From assembly GCA_022709865.1 (NCBI GenBank), contig JAKLIA010000001.1, positions 127,591 to 191,590 of the forward strand: a DNA stretch of 64,000 nucleotides. Direction: 5' to 3'. The translations under genes were made by a program, and so were the position numbers. The stretch's first letter is position 1. Every line of letters begins with the position of its first letter. Shown in pieces: positions 10,727 through 64,000 of the stretch. Below the pieces are notes generated by a model. That model made no database searches and was not told where the DNA came from. It was given only the letters and a program-made list of their open reading frames with translations. This DNA is from Patescibacteria group bacterium. Lineage in GTDB: Bacteria; Patescibacteriota; Minisyncoccia; Portnoybacterales; GWB1-42-6.

Positions 10727-11404
10727 ATGGGACAAAAAGTTAATCCAGTCGCTTTCCGATTGGGAGGCACCCAAAATTGGCGATCGCGCTGGTTCACCAC
10801 AAAACGATATCAGGAGTTTTTGAAAGAGGATTATTTTATCCGGAACTTTTTGGCGACCAAGTTGATTAAAGCTGGCGTGGATAAAATTGAAATTGAACGC
10901 TCCAATAACTCTTTAGATGTTATAATCCAGGCGGCTCGGCCGGGCTTGATCATTGGCCGCGGGGGATCTGGCGTTGAGGACCTGAAAAAAGAAGTTAAAT
11001 CGCTTTTGGCCAAGAAATTAAAGAAGTCCATTAAAATGGACCTGCGTTTATCGGTTGAAGAAGTGAAAGACGCGGAAATCAGGGCAGCGGTCATTGGCCA
11101 AGGCATGGCTGAACAAATTGAAAAAAGAATGCCTTTTAGGCGCGTTTTAAAGCAAACTATTGAACGAGTATCTCAATCGCGGGATGTCCAGGGAGTTAAA
11201 ATAATGCTGGGTGGGCGGCTTGACGGCAACGAAATTGCCCGGAGAGAATGGTTGAAAAAAGGCAGCATTCCTTCCCAAACAATGAGAGCGGATATTGATT
11301 ATGCCCAGACCACGGCTTTCACCACTTACGGAACGATTGGCATTAAAGTTTGGGTTTTCAAAAAAGAAGATTTGAATAAGAAAAAAGAAGATAAAAAGAA
11401 CTAG
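10727..11404 (+). CDS. rpsC: 30S ribosomal protein S3
   Basis: 225 aa; [12 protein letters not shown] start with KH domain and IGRGG motif. Confidence 0.96.
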
Positions 11405-11406
11405 TT

Positions 11407-11811
11407 ATGAATCCGAAAAAAGTAAAACATCGAAAATGGCAAAAAGGAAACTCTAGCGGCTTGTCCAAAGCTGGCAACGAGGTATCTTTTGGCGCCTTTG
11501 GCTTAAAGGCGATGGAAACCTGTTGGATGACCGGACGACAGATAGAAGCGGCCAGGCGAGCCATGACTAGATTTATTAAGCGCGGCGGAAAAGTTTGGTT
11601 GCGCATTTTCCCTGATAAACCGGTGACCAAAAAGGGTGCTGAAACTCCGATGGGCGGCGGAAAAGGCGCGGTGGAATATTACGTGACCGTGGTTAAGCCG
11701 GGCCGGATCTTATTTGAAATGGACGGCGTGAGCGAAGCGGATGCACGGGAAGCTTTTCGGTTGGCGGCGCATAAATTGCCGATCAAAACGAAGTTTATAG
11801 TGAAAAATTAA
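11407..11811 (+). CDS. rplP: 50S ribosomal protein L16
   Basis: 134 aa; [10 protein letters not shown] start and RMGGGKG motif. Confidence 0.96.
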
Positions 11812-11824
11812 TCAGGAATATTTT

Positions 11825-12004
11825 ATGAAAGCCAAAGAATTAAAACAAAAGACCAACGGGGAGCTAGAATTGATGCTTAAAGAGAACCGGGAAAAACTCC
11901 GTTCTTTGCGCTTTGATCTGGCCAGCAAAAAATTAAAGAAAACGGATGAGCTGTCAAAGGTTAAAAGAGAAATTGCCAGGGTCTTAACGGTTTTAAAAAA
12001 ATAA
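11825..12004 (+). CDS. rpmC: 50S ribosomal protein L29
   Basis: 59-aa ORF MKAKELKQKTNGELELMLKENREKLRSLRFDLAS... It is missing from the ORF track because it is under 60 aa; its sequence and its position between rplP and rpsQ identify it. Confidence 0.9.
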   Translation: MKAKELKQKTNGELELMLKENREKLRSLRFDLASKKLKKTDELSKVKREIARVLTVLKK

Positions 12005-12019
12005 GTTTCCAGAAATTAA

Positions 12020-12262
12020 TTGAAAAATATGCCAAATAAACAATTAAAAGGAGTTGTCGTTTCCAATAAGATGCAAAAAACAGTGATCGTCGCAGTGACG
12101 CGTCTTAAAGAGCACAGCTTATATAAGAAAAAATATAAAGTCACGACTCGCTACAGCGCGCACGATGAAAAGAATGAATATCAGATAGGCGATAAAGTGA
12201 TAATTTCCGAAACCAGCCCGATTTCCAAGAATAAAAAATGGATAGTTACGCAAAAAGCATAA
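12020..12262 (+). CDS. rpsQ: 30S ribosomal protein S17 (the true start may be the internal Met at 12029)
   Basis: 80 aa; LKGVVVSNKMQKTVIVAV matches the S17 N-terminus. Confidence 0.93.
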   Translation: MKNMPNKQLKGVVVSNKMQKTVIVAVTRLKEHSLYKKKYKVTTRYSAHDEKNEYQIGDKVIISETSPISKNKKWIVTQKA

Positions 12263-12283
12263 ATTGATTTAATAAAAGAAGCT

Positions 12284-12649
12284 ATGATTCAACCACGTTC
12301 TATTTTAAAAGTAGCAGACAATAGCGGCGCTAAAATCGTTCGGTGTTTTAAGGTTTTAGGCGGAACCCGCCGGCGCTGGGCGCAGTTGGGCGATGTTGTT
12401 GTTTGTTCCGTTCAGACGGCTGAACCTCGCAAAGCGGTGAAAAAAGGGGATGTGGTCAAAGCGGTAATCATTAGGCAGCGGAATCCTTTTAGGCGGCACG
12501 ACGGTTCTTACATTAGGTTTGACGATAACGCGGTTGTTCTGGTTGATGGCTTGGAGCCAAAGGGTGGCCGGATCTTTGGGCCGGTAGCGCGCGAGTTAAG
12601 AAATAAAGGCTATACAACGATAATTTCATTAGCGCCGGAAGTAGTCTAA
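12284..12649 (+). CDS. rplN: 50S ribosomal protein L14
   Basis: 121 aa; [17 protein letters not shown] start. Confidence 0.97.
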
Positions 12650-18104: not shown

Positions 18105-18901
18105 TAAAGATAAAAAACGAAATTGAAATAGAATTGATGCGCCAAGGTGGAAAAATCTTGGCGTCTGTTTTATTTGAGCTGTCAAAAAAAATAAAACCCG
18201 GCCTGACCACCAAAGAACTAGATGAATTAGCAGAAGAGCTTATTTATCAAAATGGCGCTTTGCCGGCCTTTAAAGGTTTTGATGGCTACCCAAACGCGCT
18301 TTGCACTTCGGTTAACAATGAAATAGTCCATGCCTTGCCTTCAAGCCGCAAGCTAAAAGAGGGCGATATTATCGGTTTGGACCTAGGCGTGCTTTGGCCG
18401 CCAGAGCATTGCGCTTCTTGCGCGATGGCTGGAGGCTGTGGCGGGCAGAAAGGCCTATACACGGATGCGGCTCTTACCGTAGCGGTGGGTAAAATTAGCC
18501 CGGAAGCAAAAAAATTAATGGAAGCAACTCGCGGTGCCTTGCAGGCGGGCCTAGACAAGATCAAGCCCGGCCGGAAACTCTTTGAGGTTTCAGCGGCAAT
18601 TGAAAAATATGCTAAGGGACAAGGCTTTGCCATTGTGCGCGAACTGATAGGGCACGGCGTAGGTTATGATCTGCACGAAGAGCCAGAAATCCCTAATTTT
18701 GTCAGCGCTTATTTTAAAGACATAACCTTAAAAGAAGGCATGACCTTGGCAGTTGAGCCGATGTTGTCGGCCGGCAGTTATAAAATAAAAAAATCAAAAG
18801 ACGGCTACGGCTACGAGACGGAAGACGGCTCTCTTTCGGCGCATTTTGAGCACACGGTAACGGTGACTAAAGGCGGGTATGAAATCTTGACGAAAAATTA
18901 A
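18101..18901 (+). CDS. map: methionine aminopeptidase type I with a Cys-rich insertion
   Basis: 266 aa; pita-bread fold motifs (GHGVG, metal-ligand D/H/E positions); extra segment LWPPEHCASCAMAGGCGGQKGLY inserted near the first metal-binding Asp loop; 4-nt overlap with adk. Confidence 0.9.
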   Translation: MIKIKNEIEIELMRQGGKILASVLFELSKKIKPGLTTKELDELAEELIYQNGALPAFKGFDGYPNALCTSVNNEIVHALPSSRKLKEGDIIGLDLGVLWPPEHCASCAMAGGCGGQKGLYTDAALTVAVGKISPEAKKLMEATRGALQAGLDKIKPGRKLFEVSAAIEKYAKGQGFAIVRELIGHGVGYDLHEEPEIPNFVSAYFKDITLKEGMTLAVEPMLSAGSYKIKKSKDGYGYETEDGSLSAHFEHTVTVTKGGYEILTKN

Positions 18902-18925
18902 AAAAGGAAAATTAAGGCTGCTTTG

Positions 18926-18950
18926 GCTCCCAAAAGAGCCTTTTTATTTT
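18926..18950 (+). terminator. weak intrinsic terminator after map (GGCTCC-CAAAA-GAGCC plus T-run)
   Basis: Short 5-bp GC stem followed by TTTTTATTTT. Confidence 0.35.
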
Positions 18951-18955
18951 GGCGC

Positions 18956-18966
18956 GGTTTTATGAT
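18956..18966 (+). promoter_or_regulatory. extended -10 element (TGATATAAT) upstream of the GT2 gene
   Basis: TGnTATAAT consensus read directly; no convincing -35. Confidence 0.35.
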
Positions 18967-19010
18967 ATAATCTAAGCACTTGGGAGGTTAATTATTTAAC
19001 GTTATTCTTT

Positions 19011-19781
19011 ATGGAAAATCAGCCGTATTTATCAGTAATTATTCCTGCTTATAATGAGGAAAAGCGTATTAGTAAAACTTTATTATCAGTTGATGCTTAT
19101 TTGTTAAAACAGTCTTTTGATTACGAAATCTTAGTGGTTTCGGACGGTTCAAGCGATAAAACCGCGGAAATTGTAAATAATTTCCAGAAAAGCATAAAAA
19201 ACTTAAAGCTGATAGATAATCAGGCAAACCATGGCAAAGGCTGGGTAACCCGCCAAGGGATGCTGACAGCCCTGGGCCAAGTCCGGCTTTTTATGGACGC
19301 GGACAACGCCACAACTCTGGACCATTTTGATAAAATGAAACAGTATTTTGATAACGGTTCCCAATTGGTTATTGGCTCTCGCGATCCAAAGGATGCTAAG
19401 GGCGCTAAACAAGCGGTATCGCAGCCGGGATTTAAACGCTTGTTAGGGAATATGGGAAATATTTTGATCCAAATATTTGCTGTTTGGGGAGTTTGGGATA
19501 CGCAGTGTGGCTTTAAGGCTTTTTCGGCTGAGGCTGCCAAAGCGGTTTTTTCTAAATCAAAAATTGACCGTTGGGGATTTGATATCGAAGCTTTGGCTTT
19601 GGCGCGGAAATTAAAATATAAAATAGATGTCGTCCCGGTTTATTGGATAAACGATCCAAACAGCAAAGTGAGTCTGAAAGGGTATCTGATGACTTTCAAG
19701 GAATTGTTTCAGGTCTGGTGGTGGCTAATTACCGATGCTTACGGGATCAGAAAAGCGAAAACTTTAAAATCTGAATTATAA
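19011..19781 (+). CDS. family 2 glycosyltransferase (dolichyl-phosphate sugar synthase-like)
   Basis: 256 aa; LSVIIPAYNEE N-terminus, VVSDGSSD (DxD-type) and GT-A fold motifs. Confidence 0.8.
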   Translation: MENQPYLSVIIPAYNEEKRISKTLLSVDAYLLKQSFDYEILVVSDGSSDKTAEIVNNFQKSIKNLKLIDNQANHGKGWVTRQGMLTALGQVRLFMDADNATTLDHFDKMKQYFDNGSQLVIGSRDPKDAKGAKQAVSQPGFKRLLGNMGNILIQIFAVWGVWDTQCGFKAFSAEAAKAVFSKSKIDRWGFDIEALALARKLKYKIDVVPVYWINDPNSKVSLKGYLMTFKELFQVWWWLITDAYGIRKAKTLKSEL

Positions 19782-37669: not shown

Positions 37670-37740
37670 GCGGGTATGGTTCAGTGGTAGAACGCGACCT
37701 TCCCAAGGTTGAGATGCGGGTCCGATTCCCGCTACCCGCT
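37670..37740 (+). tRNA. tRNA-Gly (anticodon CCC)
   Basis: Cloverleaf: acceptor GCGGGTA/TACCCGC, D stem GTTC/GAAC, anticodon stem CGACC/GGTTG with loop TTCCCAA, T stem GCGGG/CCCGC with loop TCCGATT; discriminator U; CCA not encoded. Confidence 0.8.
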
Positions 37741-37747
37741 CAGAGTT

Positions 37748-37871
37748 AGGGACGCAAGCCAACTGCTTGGCTTGCGTTGGGAATCGGACGCCGGAGCGTT
37801 GTTGCGCCAGCAGGCGCAACCGCGAGGCGGTGGCTAGCCCAAGGAGCGCGACGGCGCGACGAGAGGCGAAG
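37748..37871 (+). repeat. GC-rich structured repeat element, copy A (about 124 nt) between tRNA-Gly and tRNA-Thr; homologous to 40865-40997
   Basis: Shares about 80% identity over about 125 nt with copy B; contains a perfect 10-bp hairpin CGCAAGCCAA-CTGC-TTGGCTTGCG and conserved blocks CGCCGGAGCGTTG, CCAGCAGGCG, CGCGAGGCGGTGG, GGAGCGCG-CGGCGCGACGAGAG. Confidence 0.8.
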
Positions 37872-37897
37872 CCGATTCCCGCTACCCGCTCAGAGTT
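37872..37897 (+). repeat. 26-nt direct repeat duplicating the tRNA-Gly 3' end (T-loop to 7 nt past the 3' end); partner at 37722-37747
   Basis: CCGATTCCCGCTACCCGCTCAGAGTT occurs identically at 37722-37747 and 37872-37897, flanking repeat copy A like attL/attR. Confidence 0.85.
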
Positions 37898-39793: not shown

Positions 39794-40705
39794 ATGTTAA
39801 AAACCGCTATTTGGCGAATATTAAAATCAGGTTGGCAAAGCTTTATCCGCAACTATTGGCTATCAACCGCTACCGTGGCGGTGATGATTTTAGCATTGTT
39901 TGTGATCGGGGGGCTGGCGCTTTTTAACGTGATGACCCAGGCAATCGTGGAAAATCTTGAGGGCCGGGTGGACGTGAGCGTGTATTTTAATAAAGACACG
40001 GAAGAGGCCAAAGTTTTGTCGGTGCGGCAGGAATTGGTAGAATTGCCGGAAGTTAAAAGCGTGGACTATATTTCGCAAGATGAAGCTTTAAAAAACTTTC
40101 AGGAGCGCCATAAAGATAACGAGGTTTTGCTGCAAAGTTTGCAGGAATTGGACCAAAATCCGCTGGAGCCAAGCTTAAACATAAAAGCCAACGAAGCTTC
40201 GCAATACGAATCAATTTCCAATTATCTGGCGCAGGACAGATTTCAAGGGATAATAGATAAAATCAACTATAAGCAAAATCAGGATATCATTAACCGCTTA
40301 ACTCGCTTAACCGGTAATATCCAAATGGGCGGGTTATTGATCTCTCTATTTTTGGGATTGCTGGCGGTGTTGGTTTCTTTTAACACGGTTCGCTTGACTA
40401 TGTATACCTGGCGCGATGAGATTTCGGTGATGCGGTTCGTGGGCGCAAGCAATTGGTTTATCCGCGGCCCGTTTATGGTGGAAGGCGCGCTTTACGGGAT
40501 AATTTCTGCTATCACCACAATTATTTTAATTTTCCCGATACTTTATTTGATTTCGCCAAAAATCACCAACTTTTTGCCCGAAGTCGACTTGCTTTATTTC
40601 TATCAGGTCAATTTCTGGCAATTCTTGATTTTAATGTTCGGGGTTGGTATCTTAATTGGAGGCGTTTCCAGTCTCATCGCGATTCGCCGATACCTAAGAG
40701 AATAA
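39794..40705 (+). CDS. ftsX: cell division permease FtsX
   Basis: 303 aa; N-terminal TM, periplasmic domain and three C-terminal TM segments; position after ftsE. Confidence 0.85.
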   Translation: MLKTAIWRILKSGWQSFIRNYWLSTATVAVMILALFVIGGLALFNVMTQAIVENLEGRVDVSVYFNKDTEEAKVLSVRQELVELPEVKSVDYISQDEALKNFQERHKDNEVLLQSLQELDQNPLEPSLNIKANEASQYESISNYLAQDRFQGIIDKINYKQNQDIINRLTRLTGNIQMGGLLISLFLGLLAVLVSFNTVRLTMYTWRDEISVMRFVGASNWFIRGPFMVEGALYGIISAITTIILIFPILYLISPKITNFLPEVDLLYFYQVNFWQFLILMFGVGILIGGVSSLIAIRRYLRE

Positions 40706-40724
40706 TTCTTTTCGTTAATTATCG

Positions 40725-40758
40725 GCGACTAGCGATTAGTCGCTAGTCGCTATTTTAT
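40725..40758 (+). terminator. intrinsic terminator (perfect 11-bp palindrome GCGACTAGCGA-TTAG-TCGCTAGTCGC plus TATTTTATT)
   Basis: Read directly after the ftsX stop; the U-rich tract abuts the tRNA-Gln 5' end. Confidence 0.6.
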
Positions 40759-40829
40759 TGGGGAGTAGCCAAGTGGTAAGGCAACGGACTCTGAATCCGT
40801 CATCGGGGGTTCGAATCCCTCCTCCCCAA
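40759..40829 (+). tRNA. tRNA-Gln (anticodon CUG)
   Basis: Acceptor TGGGGAG/CTCCCCA, D stem GCCA/TGGT-like, anticodon stem ACGGA/TCCGT with loop CTCTGAA, T loop TTCGAAT; CCA not encoded. Confidence 0.75.
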
Positions 40830-40864
40830 CAAACGACCCCGCATTTGCGGGGGAGGCAGTTGGG

Positions 40865-40997
40865 GAGAGCGAGCCAACTGCTTGGCTCGCGTGAGGGATG
40901 AGAACGCCGGAGCGTTGCCGAGCCAGCAGGCGAGGCCGCGAGGCGGTGGTTAGGCCGAGGAGCGCGGCGGCGCGACGAGAGCCGAAACCGAATCCCG
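40865..40997 (+). repeat. GC-rich structured repeat element, copy B, immediately downstream of tRNA-Gln; homologous to 37748-37871
   Basis: Same conserved blocks as copy A; the hairpin GCGAGCCAA-CTGC-TTGGCTCGC carries a compensatory A:T to G:C pair change relative to copy A; preceded by an extra hairpin CCCCGCATTTGCGGGG at 40837-40853. Confidence 0.8.
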
Positions 40998-41002
40998 ACT
41001 TT

Positions 41003-41263
41003 ATGGCTTATTATACTTATATCCTCGAATGCGCCGATAAATCTCTGTATGTCGGCTGCACTAATAATTTAGAGAAAAGAGTAAAGGAGCATAACAATTC
41101 CAAGTGCGGTGCGCATTATACAAAAATCCGCCGACCGATTATTTTAAAATATTCGGAAAAATATAAAACATTACTTAAGGCGCGCCGGCGCGAAGCGGAA
41201 ATTAAAAGTTGGAGACGGGATAAAAAAATACATCTAATTAAATTTGGTAAACTTAAAACTTAG
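41003..41263 (+). CDS. small GIY-YIG domain nuclease (YhbQ/UPF0213-like)
   Basis: 86 aa from MAYYTYILECADKSLYVGCTNNLEKRVKEHN... with the GIY-YIG pattern (YtYIL, YvGcT, R, E, N); the ORF-track N-terminal extension back to 40898 reads through the repeat and is rejected. Confidence 0.7.
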   Translation: MAYYTYILECADKSLYVGCTNNLEKRVKEHNNSKCGAHYTKIRRPIILKYSEKYKTLLKARRREAEIKSWRRDKKIHLIKFGKLKT

Positions 41264-41300
41264 CCAGAACTAGCTCCTTCTATATTTTATTTGAACTGGT

Positions 41301-41858
41301 ATGATTATTGTAATTTTAATTTTTATATTATCTTTAACCTCTGGAATAATAGGGGCATATTTTATTTTTAAAGATAAAAGTCGACTTTTGGGCATATTAC
41401 TAATTTGTATAGCGATTGCTATTGCTTTTTTGGGTTTTTTATCGGATTTTATTTCAAGGCAACAAATTAACAGAATAGAAAAATATTCTAATATAGCGAA
41501 AATGATGCCTTGTGGTTCGGATACATGTATGGGAAAAGGACTTCATTTTACTGGTGGTCTAGGTGGTGATTTGGAGGGCACTTATATAATGACCGAAGAT
41601 AAGTTTACCTATAAATGCGACAAAGAATCGATAGATAAAATGATAAAAGTTACCAAAAATTATCCGGATTTTCCTTTTAGTTATTATAGTATAGCAACAT
41701 GTAAAAAAGATCGCGGAGAGGAAGGATGGAAAGAGTATGCTGAAAGAGCTATAGATATATTTGAAGAAACCACACAAATAAAAGATCATAATTCGGCACA
41801 CGATGAAGGACTAGAAGATTTAAAAAATGACTTGGACCCATTCGGTGGTCTCTTTTAA
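41301..41858 (+). CDS. hypothetical membrane protein (two N-terminal TM, Cys-containing soluble domain) in a strongly AT-rich segment
   Basis: 185 aa; the DNA here is far more AT-rich than neighbouring genes; CGSDTC and two further Cys; no family recognised. Confidence 0.5.
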   Translation: MIIVILIFILSLTSGIIGAYFIFKDKSRLLGILLICIAIAIAFLGFLSDFISRQQINRIEKYSNIAKMMPCGSDTCMGKGLHFTGGLGGDLEGTYIMTEDKFTYKCDKESIDKMIKVTKNYPDFPFSYYSIATCKKDRGEEGWKEYAERAIDIFEETTQIKDHNSAHDEGLEDLKNDLDPFGGLF

Positions 41859-41865
41859 GCTAATT

Positions 41866-42903
41866 ATGATTAGTCGGACTAATTTTATTTGGGGCATTAG
41901 CGCCGGAGTGGCGATAATAATTTTGGCAATAATTTCAGTATTTGCGATTTGGTCATTTCTTTTAAATGGAACGACTTTTTTTGGTTGGTGGAAAAATGAG
42001 GCGGTAATAATTAACTCGTCATCTATTCCATCACCTAGCGTAAGTCCTGAGGTGCAAGATGTTAAGCTTTTATTTTTTGGAGACCTAATGTTTGACCGGA
42101 ATATTCGGCAAGTTGCCGCAAAAAATGGCAATGATTTTATTTTTGCCCAAATTGCGCCTTGGCTGGCGGAAAATGATTTAGTGGTGGCAAACTTAGAAGG
42201 CCCCATAACAGAAAATAAATCCGTGAGTTTGGGTAGTGAGCCAGGGAGCACTAATAATTTTATTTTTACTTTTGACTCAAGCTTGGCGGGAGCTTTATTT
42301 AACAATAATATTCGGCTGGTGAACTTGGGCAATAACCATATTTTAAACTTTGGGCAGGCAGGGCTGGAATCGACCAAGCAATATTTAAATAGTGCGGGTG
42401 TTGGCTATTTTGGCGAGCCGGCTGGGCCAAGTTCAATTTCGCCAAACATTAAGAGTGTTGTAAAGAATATAAAAGGCGTAAAAATCGCTTTTATAAATTA
42501 TAATCAGTTCATCGGAAACGCGTCGACTGAACAAATAACAACCATTGAAGAAATAAAAAATATTAAAGCGCAGGCAGATATAGTGATCTTGTATGCGCAT
42601 TGGGGGATTGAATATGACAGCGCGCCAAATAGCGCGATTAAAAACTTAGCGCATAGCTTTGTGGAGGCTGGCGCGGATTTAGTTATCGGCTCGCACCCCC
42701 ATGTTGTCCAGCCGTCAGAAGAATATCTGGGCAAGAAAATATATTATTCCCTTGGCAATTTTGTTTTTGACCAATATTTCAGCCAGGCGGTCAAACAGGG
42801 GCTAGGAGTTATTGTAAAAATAAACAGCGCCACCAAACGCCTTGAGTTTGAAGAAAAAAAGCTGCTTTTGCAGGCTAACGGGCAGACGAGTTTATCAGAA
42901 TAA
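41866..42903 (+). CDS. CapA/PGA_cap family metallophosphatase-like protein (poly-gamma-glutamate capsule biosynthesis CapA homolog); start uncertain (the ORF track begins at 41827)
   Basis: N-terminal signal anchor, FFGDLMFDR, HWGIEY and GSHPHVVQP motifs typical of the CapA family calcineurin-like fold. Confidence 0.65.
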   Translation: MISRTNFIWGISAGVAIIILAIISVFAIWSFLLNGTTFFGWWKNEAVIINSSSIPSPSVSPEVQDVKLLFFGDLMFDRNIRQVAAKNGNDFIFAQIAPWLAENDLVVANLEGPITENKSVSLGSEPGSTNNFIFTFDSSLAGALFNNNIRLVNLGNNHILNFGQAGLESTKQYLNSAGVGYFGEPAGPSSISPNIKSVVKNIKGVKIAFINYNQFIGNASTEQITTIEEIKNIKAQADIVILYAHWGIEYDSAPNSAIKNLAHSFVEAGADLVIGSHPHVVQPSEEYLGKKIYYSLGNFVFDQYFSQAVKQGLGVIVKINSATKRLEFEEKKLLLQANGQTSLSE

Positions 42904-60843: not shown

Positions 60844-63800
60844 ATGAGTAAAACATTTAAAAAAGTCGTTTCCGTTACTACCAGCGTGACCACAATTTTG
60901 TGGTTGTCTGGCGTTGCGGCTTTGGCTCCTATGGCTGCTTTTGCTGCCACCATCAATGAAGGTGACACCATCAAGACTGCCACAAGCCCGGATGTTTATA
61001 TTGCTAAATATGTTGGCGCGAAGAAATTCAAGAGACTTATCTTGAACCCTTCCGTCTTCAATAGCTATAAGCATTTGAGCTGGAGCGCTATCAAAACCGT
61101 GACTCAAGCGGAAATGGACGCTTTTACAACTTCTGATTTAGTGAGAGCTTTGGGTGATGCACCGGTTTATAAATTGGTTCCGAACGGTGATGAAGGTACA
61201 AAACAATGGGTCAACATGACTGCCGAGGCGTTTACCGCCGCCGGTTATGATTGGGATTCCATTTATGTAATCAACAACACTGATCGCGACAACTATACGA
61301 CTGGCGCTGCTATCACTGGCGGCACTTCTGTTTCTCCTTCAACCACTGTTACCCCGGGTGTGGCCGGAACCTTAACGGTTTCTTTGGCTTCTGACACTCC
61401 GGCGGCTGGCATTGCGCCTTTGAAGGCGGCCCGAGTTCCGTTTACTAAGTTTGCTTTGACAGCTGGCGCGACTGATGTCACTATCACCGCGATCACTGCT
61501 CAGCGAACCGGTTTAGCGGCTGACACTGCTTTGTCTTCCGTTGCCTTAATTGACAACGCGACAAACTTGCAGGTTGGTTTGAACCAGACCTTGAACTCTG
61601 TTCACCAAGTCACGATTCGCGAAACTATCACCATTCCGGCTAATACCACCAAGTATTATACTTTGGCGGCTAACATGCCTTCATCCTCAGCCAGTGCTTC
61701 TGGCCAGGTTGCTTCTTTGGCTTTGACGGCTATTGAAACTACTTCAACAGTTTCCGGCTCTTTGCCGATAACTGGTAATGGCCAGACAATCAATGAAACT
61801 TTGGCTATCGGCACTTATTCCGGTGCGGCCGGTTCATTGAACGTATCAACTTCTACTAAAGAAGTTGGCGTAACCAATTTCAGTTTCTCTGGCGTCAAAT
61901 TGACTGCCGGCTCAGCTGAAGACGTGACTGTTTATTCCATCAGGTTTAACCAGTCCGGTTCAGCGGCTGCTTCCGATTTGTCCAATGTCATAGTGACTGA
62001 TGGAACAACTAACTATGCCACGACCATCTCTTCCGATGGTAAATACTACACCGCTTCTTTTGGTGCCGCTGGCTTATTGATCGCCAAGGGGCTAAACAAA
62101 GAGTTTACGGTGAAAGGTAATATCGTTAGCGGTTCAGCTCGGACTATCAAGTTCGATATTTATCGCTCAACCGATATCGTGGTAAAGGGTAATGTCTATG
62201 GTTATTATTTGACCATTGATGCCAATACCTCAAATCCGTTCAATACCACCACTAACCCAGTTTTTATGGGTAGCACAATTACTGTGAGTGCTGGCACTTT
62301 GCGGGTTGACAAGAGCGCGACTGGTGCTCCGGCTGCCAATATTACTATTGGCGCGACCAATCAAATTTTGGGCGCTTTTGATTTCGTAGCTGCTGGTGAA
62401 TCTGTTAACGTGGCGAGCATGGTTTTTACCATCACCACTACGACTGTCACCAATAACGGCAAATTGACCAACATTACTTTGTCTAAAGCTGACGGAACAA
62501 TCTTGGCTGGTCCGGTTGACCCGACCTATTCTTCAAGCGGTGTCAATTTGGCGACCTTTACCGGTACTGTTACTTTCCCGGTTGGCACAACCCAGGTTAT
62601 CGTTAAAGGTAATTTGGATAACAACTGGACTGCTAACGACACGATTATCGTGAGTTTGAGCACTCCGGCGACTAAAGTCACCAGTATTACTGGCGTTACA
62701 ACCGGCAATACTATCACTGCCACCCCATCCTCAGCGGTTTCGGCTAACACCATGACCGTGAAGGCTGGCTCTTTGGTTGTGTCAGTTTCTGGTACTCCGG
62801 TTGCCCAGACCGTTATTATGGGTGTAACTGGCTATACTTTTGCCAATTATATCTTTGACGCTTCTGCTTCCGGCGAAGATGTTAAAGTCACTACGATTGA
62901 TTTGCAAGATATCAACGTGACTTCAGCGGAAAGCGAACTTTCCTCAATGCAATTATGGGATGGTTCAACCGCTTTGAACACCGGCAGCAATGTGCCAAAC
63001 TTGACCGATGCGGCTGGCACTAATACCCAGACCTTTACTCTGGACAGCGGTTTGATAATTCCGAAAGGAACTTCAAAGACCATTGCCTTGAAGGGTAATA
63101 TTTCTGGTTCTGCCACCGCCGGCGGCAAGTTCCAGTGGGGCTTGGCAAGCGGCGCGGCTGTGACTGCGACCGGTATGTCAACCACTCTTAACGTTGCCGA
63201 GACCGTTAATGCTGCTGATGGCTCAATAATGACTATCGCGGCGTCCGGTCAATATAGCGTGGCTTTGGATTCTTCAACTCCGACCGGTAAATTGATTGCC
63301 GCGAACACCACGGGCAATACTATGACCGTGTTGAAGTTCTACGCTACCTCTGAACAGATCAACGTCACCAAGGTTCGCTTGTCCTTGAACAATGCCAGCT
63401 CTTCTGGCAATGATTTGAGCCAAGTTTACATCTATGATGGCTCGACTCTGTTGGGCCAGGGTGTCTTGGGTATCGGTAACGCGACTGGTAAGACTAACAA
63501 TGCCAGCTCAACCTTTACTTTGACCACCCCGTTGCAGATTCCGGCCAATACCGACAAGATCGTTACGATCAAAGCCGATATTGCCCCGATCTACACTGCC
63601 AATACCGTTGCGACTGCTGGCCATATGATCGCTATTGATTTCTATGGTTCAACCAGCTCCAGCGAAAACGTTGGTAATGGTGCGTCATCCGGCGTTGAAG
63701 TTCTAAACTACAGCGTAACTACTGCCCAGACTCCGGCTTATATCTTTAAGTCTGTGCCGACAGTGGCTGCTGTGGCTTTGCCTACTTCTTCCTTGACCAA

Positions 63801-64000
63801 TGGCACTAAAGTCATTAGCAAGTTCAGCGTCACGGCTGATGCCAAGGGCGATATTGATCTTTACAAGTTTACCTTTAAGATCTCTACCGACTCTCCGACC
63901 ACCGGCGGTCCGTTGGCTATGCAGAACTTGACTTTAGTTGACGTAACTAGTAGCGCTGAAGCGACTTTATATGCTTCAACTACCCCGCATTACGCCGACT
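60844..64000 (+). CDS. giant secreted repetitive cell-surface protein (S-layer/adhesin-like), 5' partial; it runs off the window end
   Basis: Open frame of more than 1050 codons from the ATG at 60844 with no stop to 64000 (frame checked at several points); Sec signal peptide MSKTFKKVVSVTTSVTTILWLSGVAALAPMAAFA; at least 6 tandem Thr/Ser/Ala/Val-rich beta-type domains of about 130 aa; absent from the ORF track because no stop codon lies in the window. Confidence 0.8.
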   Translation, partial: MSKTFKKVVSVTTSVTTILWLSGVAALAPMAAFAATINEGDTIKTATSPDVYIAKYVGAKKFKRLILNPSVFNSYKHLSWSAIKTVTQAEMDAFTTSDLVRALGDAPVYKLVPNGDEGTKQWVNMTAEAFTAAGYDWDSIYVINNTDRDNYTTGAAITGGTSVSPSTTVTPGVAGTLTVSLASDTPAAGIAPLKAARVPFTKFALTAGATDVTITAITAQRTGLAADTALSSVALIDNATNLQVGLNQTLNSVHQVTIRETITIPANTTKYYTLAANMPSSSASASGQVASLALTAIETTSTVSGSLPITGNGQTINETLAIGTYSGAAGSLNVSTSTKEVGVTNFSFSGVKLTAGSAEDVTVYSIRFNQSGSAAASDLSNVIVTDGTTNYATTISSDGKYYTASFGAAGLLIAKGLNKEFTVKGNIVSGSARTIKFDIYRSTDIVVKGNVYGYYLTIDANTSNPFNTTTNPVFMGSTITVSAGTLRVDKSATGAPAANITIGATNQILGAFDFVAAGESVNVASMVFTITTTTVTNNGKLTNITLSKADGTILAGPVDPTYSSSGVNLATFTGTVTFPVGTTQVIVKGNLDNNWTANDTIIVSLSTPATKVTSITGVTTGNTITATPSSAVSANTMTVKAGSLVVSVSGTPVAQTVIMGVTGYTFANYIFDASASGEDVKVTTIDLQDINVTSAESELSSMQLWDGSTALNTGSNVPNLTDAAGTNTQTFTLDSGLIIPKGTSKTIALKGNISGSATAGGKFQWGLASGAAVTATGMSTTLNVAETVNAADGSIMTIAASGQYSVALDSSTPTGKLIAANTTGNTMTVLKFYATSEQINVTKVRLSLNNASSSGNDLSQVYIYDGSTLLGQGVLGIGNATGKTNNASSTFTLTTPLQIPANTDKIVTIKADIAPIYTANTVATAGHMIAIDFYGSTSSSENVGNGASSGVEVLNYSVTTAQTPAYIFKSVPTVAAVALPTSSLTNGTKVISKFSVTADAKGDIDLYKFTFKISTDSPTTGGPLAMQNLTLVDVTSSAEATLYASTTPHYAD

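Follow-up and report, generated by a model that had tools for sequence, protein, structure and literature searches.

Among described systems, the closest to the locus reported here is SegB, which PMC13096335 (with Brok-Volchanskaya 2008 cited therein) presents as a free-standing GIY-YIG homing endonuclease of T4 and T6 phages. SegB cuts inside tRNA genes, with RAWTSGAAC as the enriched motif; its gene shows significant co-localisation with the tRNAs of phage genomes, and it drives a segmental amplification that depends on recombination (PMC13096335). We analysed a 64,000-nucleotide (nt) stretch of DNA from a Patescibacteria group bacterium (contig JAKLIA010000001.1, positions 127,591 to 191,590), the whole of which is referred to below as the window. 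On the 3' side of a tRNA-Gln gene in this window lies an AT-rich islet that contains a gene for a small GIY-YIG protein and an open reading frame (ORF) of 185 amino acids (aa), designated orf185. Bacteria of the Candidate Phyla Radiation (CPR) have tiny genomes with few recognisable mobile elements. We propose, at about even confidence, that the islet consists of small modules stacked at a tRNA-Gln-linked recombination hot spot marked by the nuclease; if so, the hot spot would explain where accessory genes such as that for a TPR membrane protein enter these genomes. The features that bear on this proposal are as follows.

37748-37897, plus strand: copy 1 of a GC-rich tRNA-appended element, between tRNA-Gly(ccc) and tRNA-Thr(cgt) (covariance-model match 37779-37892, 119 bits)
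40759-40830, plus strand: tRNA-Gln with anticodon CTG, the anchor of the proposed hot spot (ARAGORN; Rfam tRNA, 71 bits)
40861-40996, plus strand: copy 2 of the GC-rich tRNA-appended element (covariance-model match 40895-41008, 108 bits, E 4e-26)
41003-41263, plus strand: GIY-YIG gene, 86 aa, UPF0213/YhbQ type (Pfam PF01541, E 4.9e-16)
41301-41858, plus strand: orf185, predicted membrane-anchored TPR-like protein of 185 aa, the compositional outlier of the window

The preliminary description of this DNA, made from the letters alone, had placed the small nuclease in the YhbQ/UPF0213 type of GIY-YIG protein, and profile and structure searches supported this assignment. PF01541 matched residues 3-75 with 59 bits against a cut-off of 22.6, and PDB 1YWL (EF2693, E 7.4e-13) and 1ZG2 (BH0048, E 3.5e-11) matched nearly the full length of the 86-aa protein. 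These UPF0213/YhbQ proteins are clearly homologous to that of the window and have the same size and domain. Across 13 aligned sequences, the catalytic residues Y6, Y16, R26, H30 and E64 do not vary. Homologues number more than 4200, and the top matches, many of them on short contigs, are 72-84% identical over several Patescibacteria lineages. Homologues place the true start of the gene at M41003. The reading frame stays open across the GC-rich element (40898-41263), so that the database protein P0005 (105 aa) and the mechanically called ORF (121 aa) bear an Arg/Ala-rich N-terminal extension; the longer ORF, from 40898, enters the element.

The GIY-YIG gene is a habitual neighbour of tRNA-Gln, lying beside it in 10 of 13 independent contexts (comparison loci are given L numbers). 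It was located 80-205 nt downstream of a same-strand tRNA-Gln, of either anticodon, in the window and in L140, L145/146/149/150, L153, L158/159, L009 and L006, directly upstream of the tRNA in L003, and 840 nt downstream in L155. A 3' remnant of tRNA-Gln precedes the gene in L012 and L047, and only L015, L141 and L144 were without any tRNA-Gln. The genes upstream of the unit vary (ftsX, dnaX-like, NUDIX, LOG-like). In 743 kb of CPR loci, all six GIY-YIG genes were within 200 nt of a tRNA. The present genes differ here from what is described for UPF0213/YhbQ, as a literature search on the family gave no tRNA-Gln linkage, flanking tRNA repeats or strain-level polymorphism. Viral contigs yielded five weak matches, none of them near a tRNA. 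A group I intron or intron homing endonuclease in the tRNA was also considered and rejected, the tRNA-Gln being intact; published tRNA introns of Patescibacteria lie at position 35/36. As a separate observation, the leaders of GIY-YIG genes are filled with similar purine-rich GACGAAGG/GTGAGGA strings, and of 132 distinct tRNA genes, 6 have the pattern [AG]ACGAAG[GT] in the 60 nt that follow, compared to an expectation of about 0.5 (L069, L077, L119, L145, L153).

Comparison of closely related loci revealed cassette-like borders to the tRNA-Gln/GIY-YIG unit. Starting at the first tRNA-Gln base, L158 and L159 share 99.9% identity, the upstream gene being NUDIX in one and FtsX in the other. The GIY-YIG gene of L158 is followed by a 14-nt stretch that exactly repeats the 3' end of tRNA-Gln (shuffle maximum, 9). 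L145 and L146 have the tRNA, the leader, the GIY-YIG gene and a further 46 nt in common and then diverge, the point of divergence coinciding exactly with an 11/13 repeat of the 3' end of tRNA-Gln. In addition, a further GIY-YIG gene stands in tandem in L145 (1473-1842), accompanied by pieces of the 5' half of tRNA-Gln, and at this site L146 has just a short duplicated piece of the tRNA 5' part. The extra copy in L145 compared to L146, the unit shared by L158 and L159, and the repeats at the borders demonstrate a presence/absence polymorphism with sharp edges.

The linkage to tRNA-Gln, the repeat-flanked borders, the strain breakpoints and the precedent of SegB provide a testable lead on the role of UPF0213/YhbQ proteins, namely that they may cut tRNA T-arm DNA. 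By our own reading, RAWTSGAAC is the complement of the T-loop consensus GTTCSAWTY, and a motif search placed it in the T-loop of the window tRNA-Gln (minus strand, 40809-40817). Like SegB, the CPR protein has a GIY-YIG catalytic domain, is encoded among or beside tRNA genes, and goes along with the duplication and reshuffling, by recombination, of DNA next to tRNAs; furthermore, the SegB cleavage motif corresponds to the T-loop region, which is where the CPR tRNA repeats begin (C56). The two differ in that SegB has a C-terminal DNA-binding part, whereas the CPR protein, a predicted nuclease, is the 86-aa catalytic domain alone, and in that SegB is a phage protein without isotype preference, whereas the CPR subfamily is cellular and tied to tRNA-Gln. 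In sequence, the two have only the generic GIY-YIG core in common (TIGR01453, E 2.6e-4, below cut-off). Of the features of a Seg-like homing endonuclease, the tRNA association and the sharply bordered presence/absence polymorphism between close relatives were present and a DNA-binding domain was absent; Pfam, NCBIfam and PHROGs gave no second domain in the GIY-YIG protein. The stronger claim that Patescibacteria UPF0213 proteins are the cellular counterparts of SegB, being T-loop-directed nucleases that break the DNA of tRNA genes and so spread their own cassette and the GC-rich element, is an analogy that we regard as doubtful. If it held, it would supply a first function for UPF0213/YhbQ and a new class of tRNA-appended structured element, and the tRNA 3' flanks would be the main sites of gene gain in reduced genomes.

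The GC-rich stretch that precedes the islet (40831-41002, GC 0.68) contains an element that occurs twice in the window, after tRNA-Gly(ccc) and after tRNA-Gln, these being exactly the two copies found by the covariance model. Identity between the two is about 85%, and compensatory changes are among their differences. The last 26 nt of copy 1 (37872-37897) exactly repeat the 3' end of tRNA-Gly together with 6 nt of trailer (37722-37747). Copy 2 begins with a copy of the tRNA 5' acceptor strand (TGGGGAG, 40861-40867), followed by a hairpin, P1 (40869-40890), and a three-way-junction core from 40895, and its ending, CCGAATCCC (40988-40996), is a truncated repeat of the T-loop and T-stem of tRNA-Gln. 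The candidate att-like repeat put forward earlier is thus part of a separate GC-rich element that precedes the islet and does not bound it.

A metagenome scan with a 19-base core pattern showed that the element represents a family, with at least 120 stretches recovered, at least 76 of them true copies (L020-L139). Almost all copies with upstream sequence sit just 3' of a same-strand tRNA gene, at least 17 isotypes being represented. The 3' end of the element repeats its own tRNA from T-loop position C56 to the end, plus a trailer of 0 to >12 nt; the exact repeat has a median of 20 nt and a constant left limit. In 49 non-redundant copies, 92.8% of the cells of the three-way junction were paired, compared to 78% in shuffled sequences and 31-43% with slid partners, two-sided changes were found in 17 of 28 pairs, and the covariation score was 0.412 vs 0.144. 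The closing helix is formed by a 5' arm and tRNA positions 56-64, with covariation between helix and upstream tRNA, and the tRNA's 5' acceptor strand stands directly before P1 in 13 of 47 copies, including the tRNA-Gln copy (controls 2.5-3.2, maximum 8). The element, about 135 nt in length, therefore has a tRNA-like frame. In searches of Rfam 15 with the window and 10 other loci, only tRNA reached threshold, and no consistent family over the element appeared up to E = 5-10. We conclude that this is a well-supported structured element absent from Rfam. We also considered whether the element is tied to the GIY-YIG gene and rejected this, such a gene lying within about 1 kb of only 4 of 76 elements; the covariance model detected no element in the GIY-YIG leaders of other genomes.

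The preliminary description had noted a sharp drop in GC next to tRNA-Gln, and measurement of GC over the 64 one-kb bins of the window bore this out. Bin 41001-42000 has a GC of 0.331, the lowest of all bins, the window mean being 0.442. A maximal-segment scan identified 41138-42144 (1007 nt, GC 0.328) as the strongest AT-rich tract of the whole window, its score of 27.4 comparing to a maximum of 14.4 in 200 permutations and to 12.4 for the runner-up segment. The next most AT-rich stretches, 18878-19220 (GC 0.31) and 11781-12293 (GC 0.34), are both far weaker. The 73 window ORFs of at least 80 aa served as a reference at the gene level (GC mean 0.440, standard deviation (sd) 0.035; GC at third codon positions (GC3) mean 0.463, sd 0.053). 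The low GC that had been attributed to three successive genes proved extreme for orf185 (GC 0.314, z -3.6; GC3 0.215, z -4.65, the window minimum) and moderate for the GIY-YIG gene (GC 0.356, GC3 0.345, about 2.3 sd low). The capA gene that follows is only about 1 sd low (GC 0.405, GC3 0.402), with the AT-richness confined to its first ~280 nt, which encode a signal anchor and Ser/Pro linker. The islet had been drawn to the end of capA at 42903; the AT-rich tract actually stops at about 42.1 kb.

The islet was next placed in the context of its neighbours. The order on the plus strand is prfB, ftsE, ftsX, tRNA-Gln(ctg), a 170-nt GC-rich stretch, the GIY-YIG gene, orf185, capA/PGA_cap and a GH1 glycosidase gene, with the following genes on the two flanks.

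39794-40705, plus strand: ftsX, ending at 40705
41866-42903, plus strand: capA/PGA_cap, the native right-hand neighbour (Pfam PF09587, 1.4e-59)

The window belongs to a CPR bacterium near Candidatus Portnoybacteria, its closest FtsX matches being 84-89% identical. In the sister locus L002, whose FtsX is 84% identical, both flanks are collinear with the window, prfB-ftsE-ftsX-tRNA-Gln on one side and capA-GH1-EamA plus three more genes on the other. The interval between tRNA-Gln and capA in L002 contains pcm-like, MBL-fold, ABC-F and cupin genes (3.4 kb) instead of the element, the GIY-YIG gene and orf185, and none of these four genes was found elsewhere in the window. Each other relative examined also carries different content 3' of tRNA-Gln. 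The interval is accordingly variable, and since L002 and the other relatives differ there, no conserved arrangement spans the whole of it. The GIY-YIG gene adjoins the ftsX-linked tRNA-Gln in the relatives L006, L009, L003 and L047 as well. The capA protein is collinear with its sister from residue 35 and 69% identical to it, which indicates that capA is native and rules out a foreign 5' end of the gene.

Two further loci allow a likely history of the interval to be drawn from sequence comparison. L047 has, in sequence, the element, a full remnant of tRNA-Gln, a spacer, a GNAT ORF, the GIY-YIG gene (78% aa identity) and an ABC-F gene, the latter being the orthologue of the ABC-F gene of L002. 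This order and orthology make it likely that the ancestral order was tRNA-Gln, (element), spacer, GIY, ABC-F, cupin, capA. In L001 a trailer stands directly 3' of tRNA-Gln, and in L047 the same trailer follows the distal tRNA remnant; by this comparison, L001 shows an empty site for the GC-rich element. The L047 element is 98.75% identical to that of the window over the last 80 nt, and the two loci diverge right after CCGAATCC(C) at 40996, within the T-arm remnant. Beyond this point the spacer is missing from the window, and orf185 stands where ABC-F and cupin are expected. This near-identity of the two elements, obtained with the reverse complement of L047 (1-100) set against window 40916-40995, compares to only 81% for the adjacent GIY-YIG genes and suggests either strong constraint on the element or recent transfer.

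The composition of the GIY-YIG gene bears on the origin of the stretch from this gene to orf185. In 10 other genomes the GC of the gene differs from that of the host by -0.05 to +0.03; in the window the difference is -0.086, and the GC3 of 0.345 compares to 0.586 and 0.517 in the two closest relatives. Because the gene lies 0.086 below host GC, with a GC3 below that of both closest relatives, the data suggest that the stretch was replaced by DNA from an AT-richer source.

One explanation of such a segment is that a recombinase inserted foreign DNA at the tRNA-Gln 3' end and that the recombinase gene has since been lost. As in a tRNA-integrated island, composition is deviant and the interval variable among relatives, the compositional island abuts the tRNA, and a repeat running from the T-loop toward the 3' end is present at 40988-40996. 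Williams, in 2002, is said to have mapped a T-loop sublocation of integrase sites within tRNA genes, a T-loop-to-3'-end repeat reportedly being the signature. The element sites of CPR bacteria resemble tRNA-gene integration sites in that a direct repeat from the T-loop through the tRNA 3' end flanks the inserted DNA and the tRNA remains intact. They differ in having no integrase and tiny inserts of 135-440 nt, in carrying the same GC-rich core behind at least 17 isotypes, each with the matching repeat, and in the covariation of the element's 5' arm with the tRNA T-loop. The islet itself departs further from such an island. The GIY-YIG gene, orf185 and capA are the only ORFs between tRNA-Gln and the islet end, and none of them matches an integrase or recombinase family. 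The sole tRNA-Gln repeat, CGAATCCC at 40989, is part of the GC-rich element upstream of the islet, and a search of about 5 kb downstream returned no match to the tRNA-Gln 3' end of >=19/30 or >=14/20. Furthermore, the GIY-YIG gene is common to relatives at the locus and the segment is only about 1 kb long. We therefore consider classical integration improbable. Of the horizontally acquired segment that the preliminary description proposed, the foreign-looking orf185 and the variable interval hold up; an integrase, a tRNA repeat bounding the segment, a newcomer GIY-YIG gene and a foreign capA do not.

We characterized the protein encoded by orf185 to determine what the AT-rich segment carries. 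The earlier assignment of a two-transmembrane (TM) protein agrees with an N-terminal two-helix TM hairpin (2-24, 28-66), which is followed by a C-terminal TPR-like domain of ~125 aa. Only four homologues came out of a word-indexed search; their identity of 60-66% and the 80 columns that are invariant indicate that orf185 is a real gene. The motif CGSDTC, singled out earlier, is not conserved, two of the homologues reading PTGSNIT. The protein had also been described as being of no recognisable family. This is true of curated libraries only: orf185 of the window had no Pfam match at E <= 0.01, and PHROGs, NCBIfam, PADLOC and a phage tblastn search were empty. An exhaustive profile search, however, found a large unnamed family of 524 clusters at E <= 1e-3, of which 320 reached E <= 1e-10. 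Its members have the C-terminal ~125 residues in common, the N-termini being variable TM or coiled-coil segments; those returned by the follow-up search had no precomputed Pfam domain and "hypothetical protein" as their sole name. Of 45 members, 31 matched the TPR-like PF09613 and 16 matched TPR_17, and the family profile matched the TPR repeats of OGT at 2e-7. An AlphaFold2 model from 9 sequences had a predicted local distance difference test (pLDDT) value of 85.6, with values >90 in the C-terminal domain. A helix-turn-helix repeat fold and TPR-type profile matches were thus both found, and we accordingly take orf185 to encode a small membrane-anchored TPR-like protein. Its most plausible role is that of a module for protein interaction at the envelope. 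Other small bacterial TPR proteins include PDB 3ma5 and 2kcl (Salinibacter), HrpB1/HrpK (PF09613) and the C-domain of LpoP (6w5q). The orf185 family differs from these in its own signature (FPFSYY, W143 and TTxIxGHxxxHD plus a beta hairpin), and in the orf185 protein the domain is fused to a two-helix membrane anchor.

The gene is absent from the tRNA-Gln/capA position in L002 and L047, and it is probably a recent acquisition because it replaces the ABC-F and cupin genes of relatives. In three other hosts the homologues are AT-rich as well (GC3 0.25-0.30). One of the homologues occurs in another setting, downstream of dnaX, where a tRNA-Gln(ttg) precedes it by 18 nt; around the homologue in L018/L019, no repeats of the tRNA-Gln 3' end were found. 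A 186-aa ORF between tRNA-Gln and the GIY-YIG gene in L155 was examined as a candidate homologue and is not homologous.

The GIY-YIG gene and orf185 are adjacent on the same strand, 37 nt apart, and both are AT-shifted, an arrangement that would be expected if nuclease and membrane TPR protein formed a two-gene system, such as a toxin/immunity or defence pair. The orf185 homologues in L018/L019, however, have no neighbouring GIY-YIG gene (L151/L152 were outside this comparison), ten other GIY-YIG contexts contain no orf185 homologue, and PADLOC gave no matches. The two genes were not found together elsewhere, which argues against a system, and we regard a functional pair as very improbable.

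Based on these data we return to the proposed hot spot, in which the 3' side of tRNA-Gln would have been assembled from three independent modules. The first would be the GC-rich tRNA-like element, which sits after the tRNA and carries the T-loop-to-3'-end repeat. The second would be the UPF0213 GIY-YIG gene, which, as the habitual companion of tRNA-Gln, may act as a free-standing homing-endonuclease cassette. By analogy with SegB, we propose that the nuclease nicks or cuts the DNA of tRNA genes, and that repair by recombination then copies the cassette, duplicates 3' parts of the tRNA and reshuffles the downstream DNA. Since the repeats start at the T-loop and the window junction falls in the adjacent T-arm remnant, the mini-nuclease is proposed to mark a T-arm-directed hot spot. 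The third module would stem from one event in the window lineage that joined DNA directly to the T-arm remnant at 40996. Such an event would have swapped the ancestral spacer(-GNAT)-GIY-ABC-F-cupin for an AT-shifted GIY-YIG allele and the membrane TPR-like gene, with orf185 probably being cargo from an AT-rich gene pool. The data directly establish the composition, the differences in synteny, the link to tRNA-Gln, the repeats at the flanks and the fold of the orf185 protein, whereas nuclease action on tRNA DNA, its causal part in the rearrangements, and the source and direction of transfer are inferred.

A potential concern with this proposal is that the GIY-YIG gene might simply be a housekeeping companion of tRNA-Gln, that is, a vertically inherited gene for a repair or structure-specific nuclease that has been kept beside tRNA-Gln since the Parcubacteria ancestor, perhaps sharing its promoter. 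The rearrangements would then occur because tRNA flanks are fragile in general, amino-acid composition and local drift would account for the low GC, orf185 would be a lineage-specific native gene, and the locus would amount to a tRNA flank of ordinary variability that bears a single foreign-looking gene. The order ftsX-tRNA-Gln-GIY is found in distant relatives (FtsX 43% identical in L009, 73% in L006), the GC of the gene is host-like in 10 genomes, the catalytic residues are strictly conserved, and GIY-YIG identity to the sister's copy (82%) is close to that of FtsX (84%), all as expected from vertical descent. The domain is related to SLX1-type structure-specific nucleases (CDD cd10456), which would also fit such a role. 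On the other hand, same-locus copies in relatives are only 43-50% identical, and copies elsewhere in other lineages are 72-84% identical. Vertical descent also fits poorly with the tRNA-Gln 3' repeats that flank the gene in L158 and L145, with the strain-level insertions and the occurrence of the same GIY-YIG unit in different contexts, with the AT shift of the window copy relative to both close relatives, and with the absence of orf185 from the tRNA-Gln/capA position in L002 and L047. Overall, we view a housekeeping companion as possible, if on the unlikely side.

Several observations weigh against the proposed hot spot and need to be set beside the evidence for it. UPF0213 genes are widespread single-copy genes, E. 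coli YhbQ being an example, in keeping with a housekeeping role. Of about 7 tRNA-Gln contexts, only 2 had flanking tRNA repeats, and the host-like GC of the GIY-YIG gene in most genomes indicates that it is a long-term resident there. No donor of the AT-rich segment was found, the best matches being 84% identical for the GIY-YIG protein and 65% for orf185, and amino-acid composition (Lys/Ile/Phe-rich TM and basic segments) could explain part of the AT-richness. The 86-aa protein ends about 10 residues past the catalytic core, without a DNA-binding domain, and SegB, other Seg enzymes and Tev enzymes need such a domain. Consistent with this need, C-terminally truncated SegB is non-toxic (PMC13096335). 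With these points taken into account, we rank as most valuable the linkage of tRNA-Gln and UPF0213 with its cassette-like borders, the reclassification of an "orphan" to a large TPR-like family, and the tRNA-appended element absent from Rfam.

Additional features were observed around the tRNA-Gln gene. The gap between ftsX and tRNA-Gln contains a 12-bp terminator-like hairpin followed by a T-run (40724-40751), and the next terminator-like site on the plus strand comes only once capA has begun. The ftsX-linked tRNA-Gln has the anticodon CTG in the window (40759-40830) and in most relatives. In the sister L002, the tRNA-Gln at 10994-11065 has a TTG anticodon and a body unrelated to that of the window. 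In L060 (590-662), a TTG anticodon arm lies inside a tRNA-Gln body that is otherwise window-like, and the distal remnant behind the GC-rich element of this locus derives from yet another tRNA-Gln type. Over the window as a whole, GC skew is positive for the first 61 kb and negative from about 61 kb on (~61000-64000).

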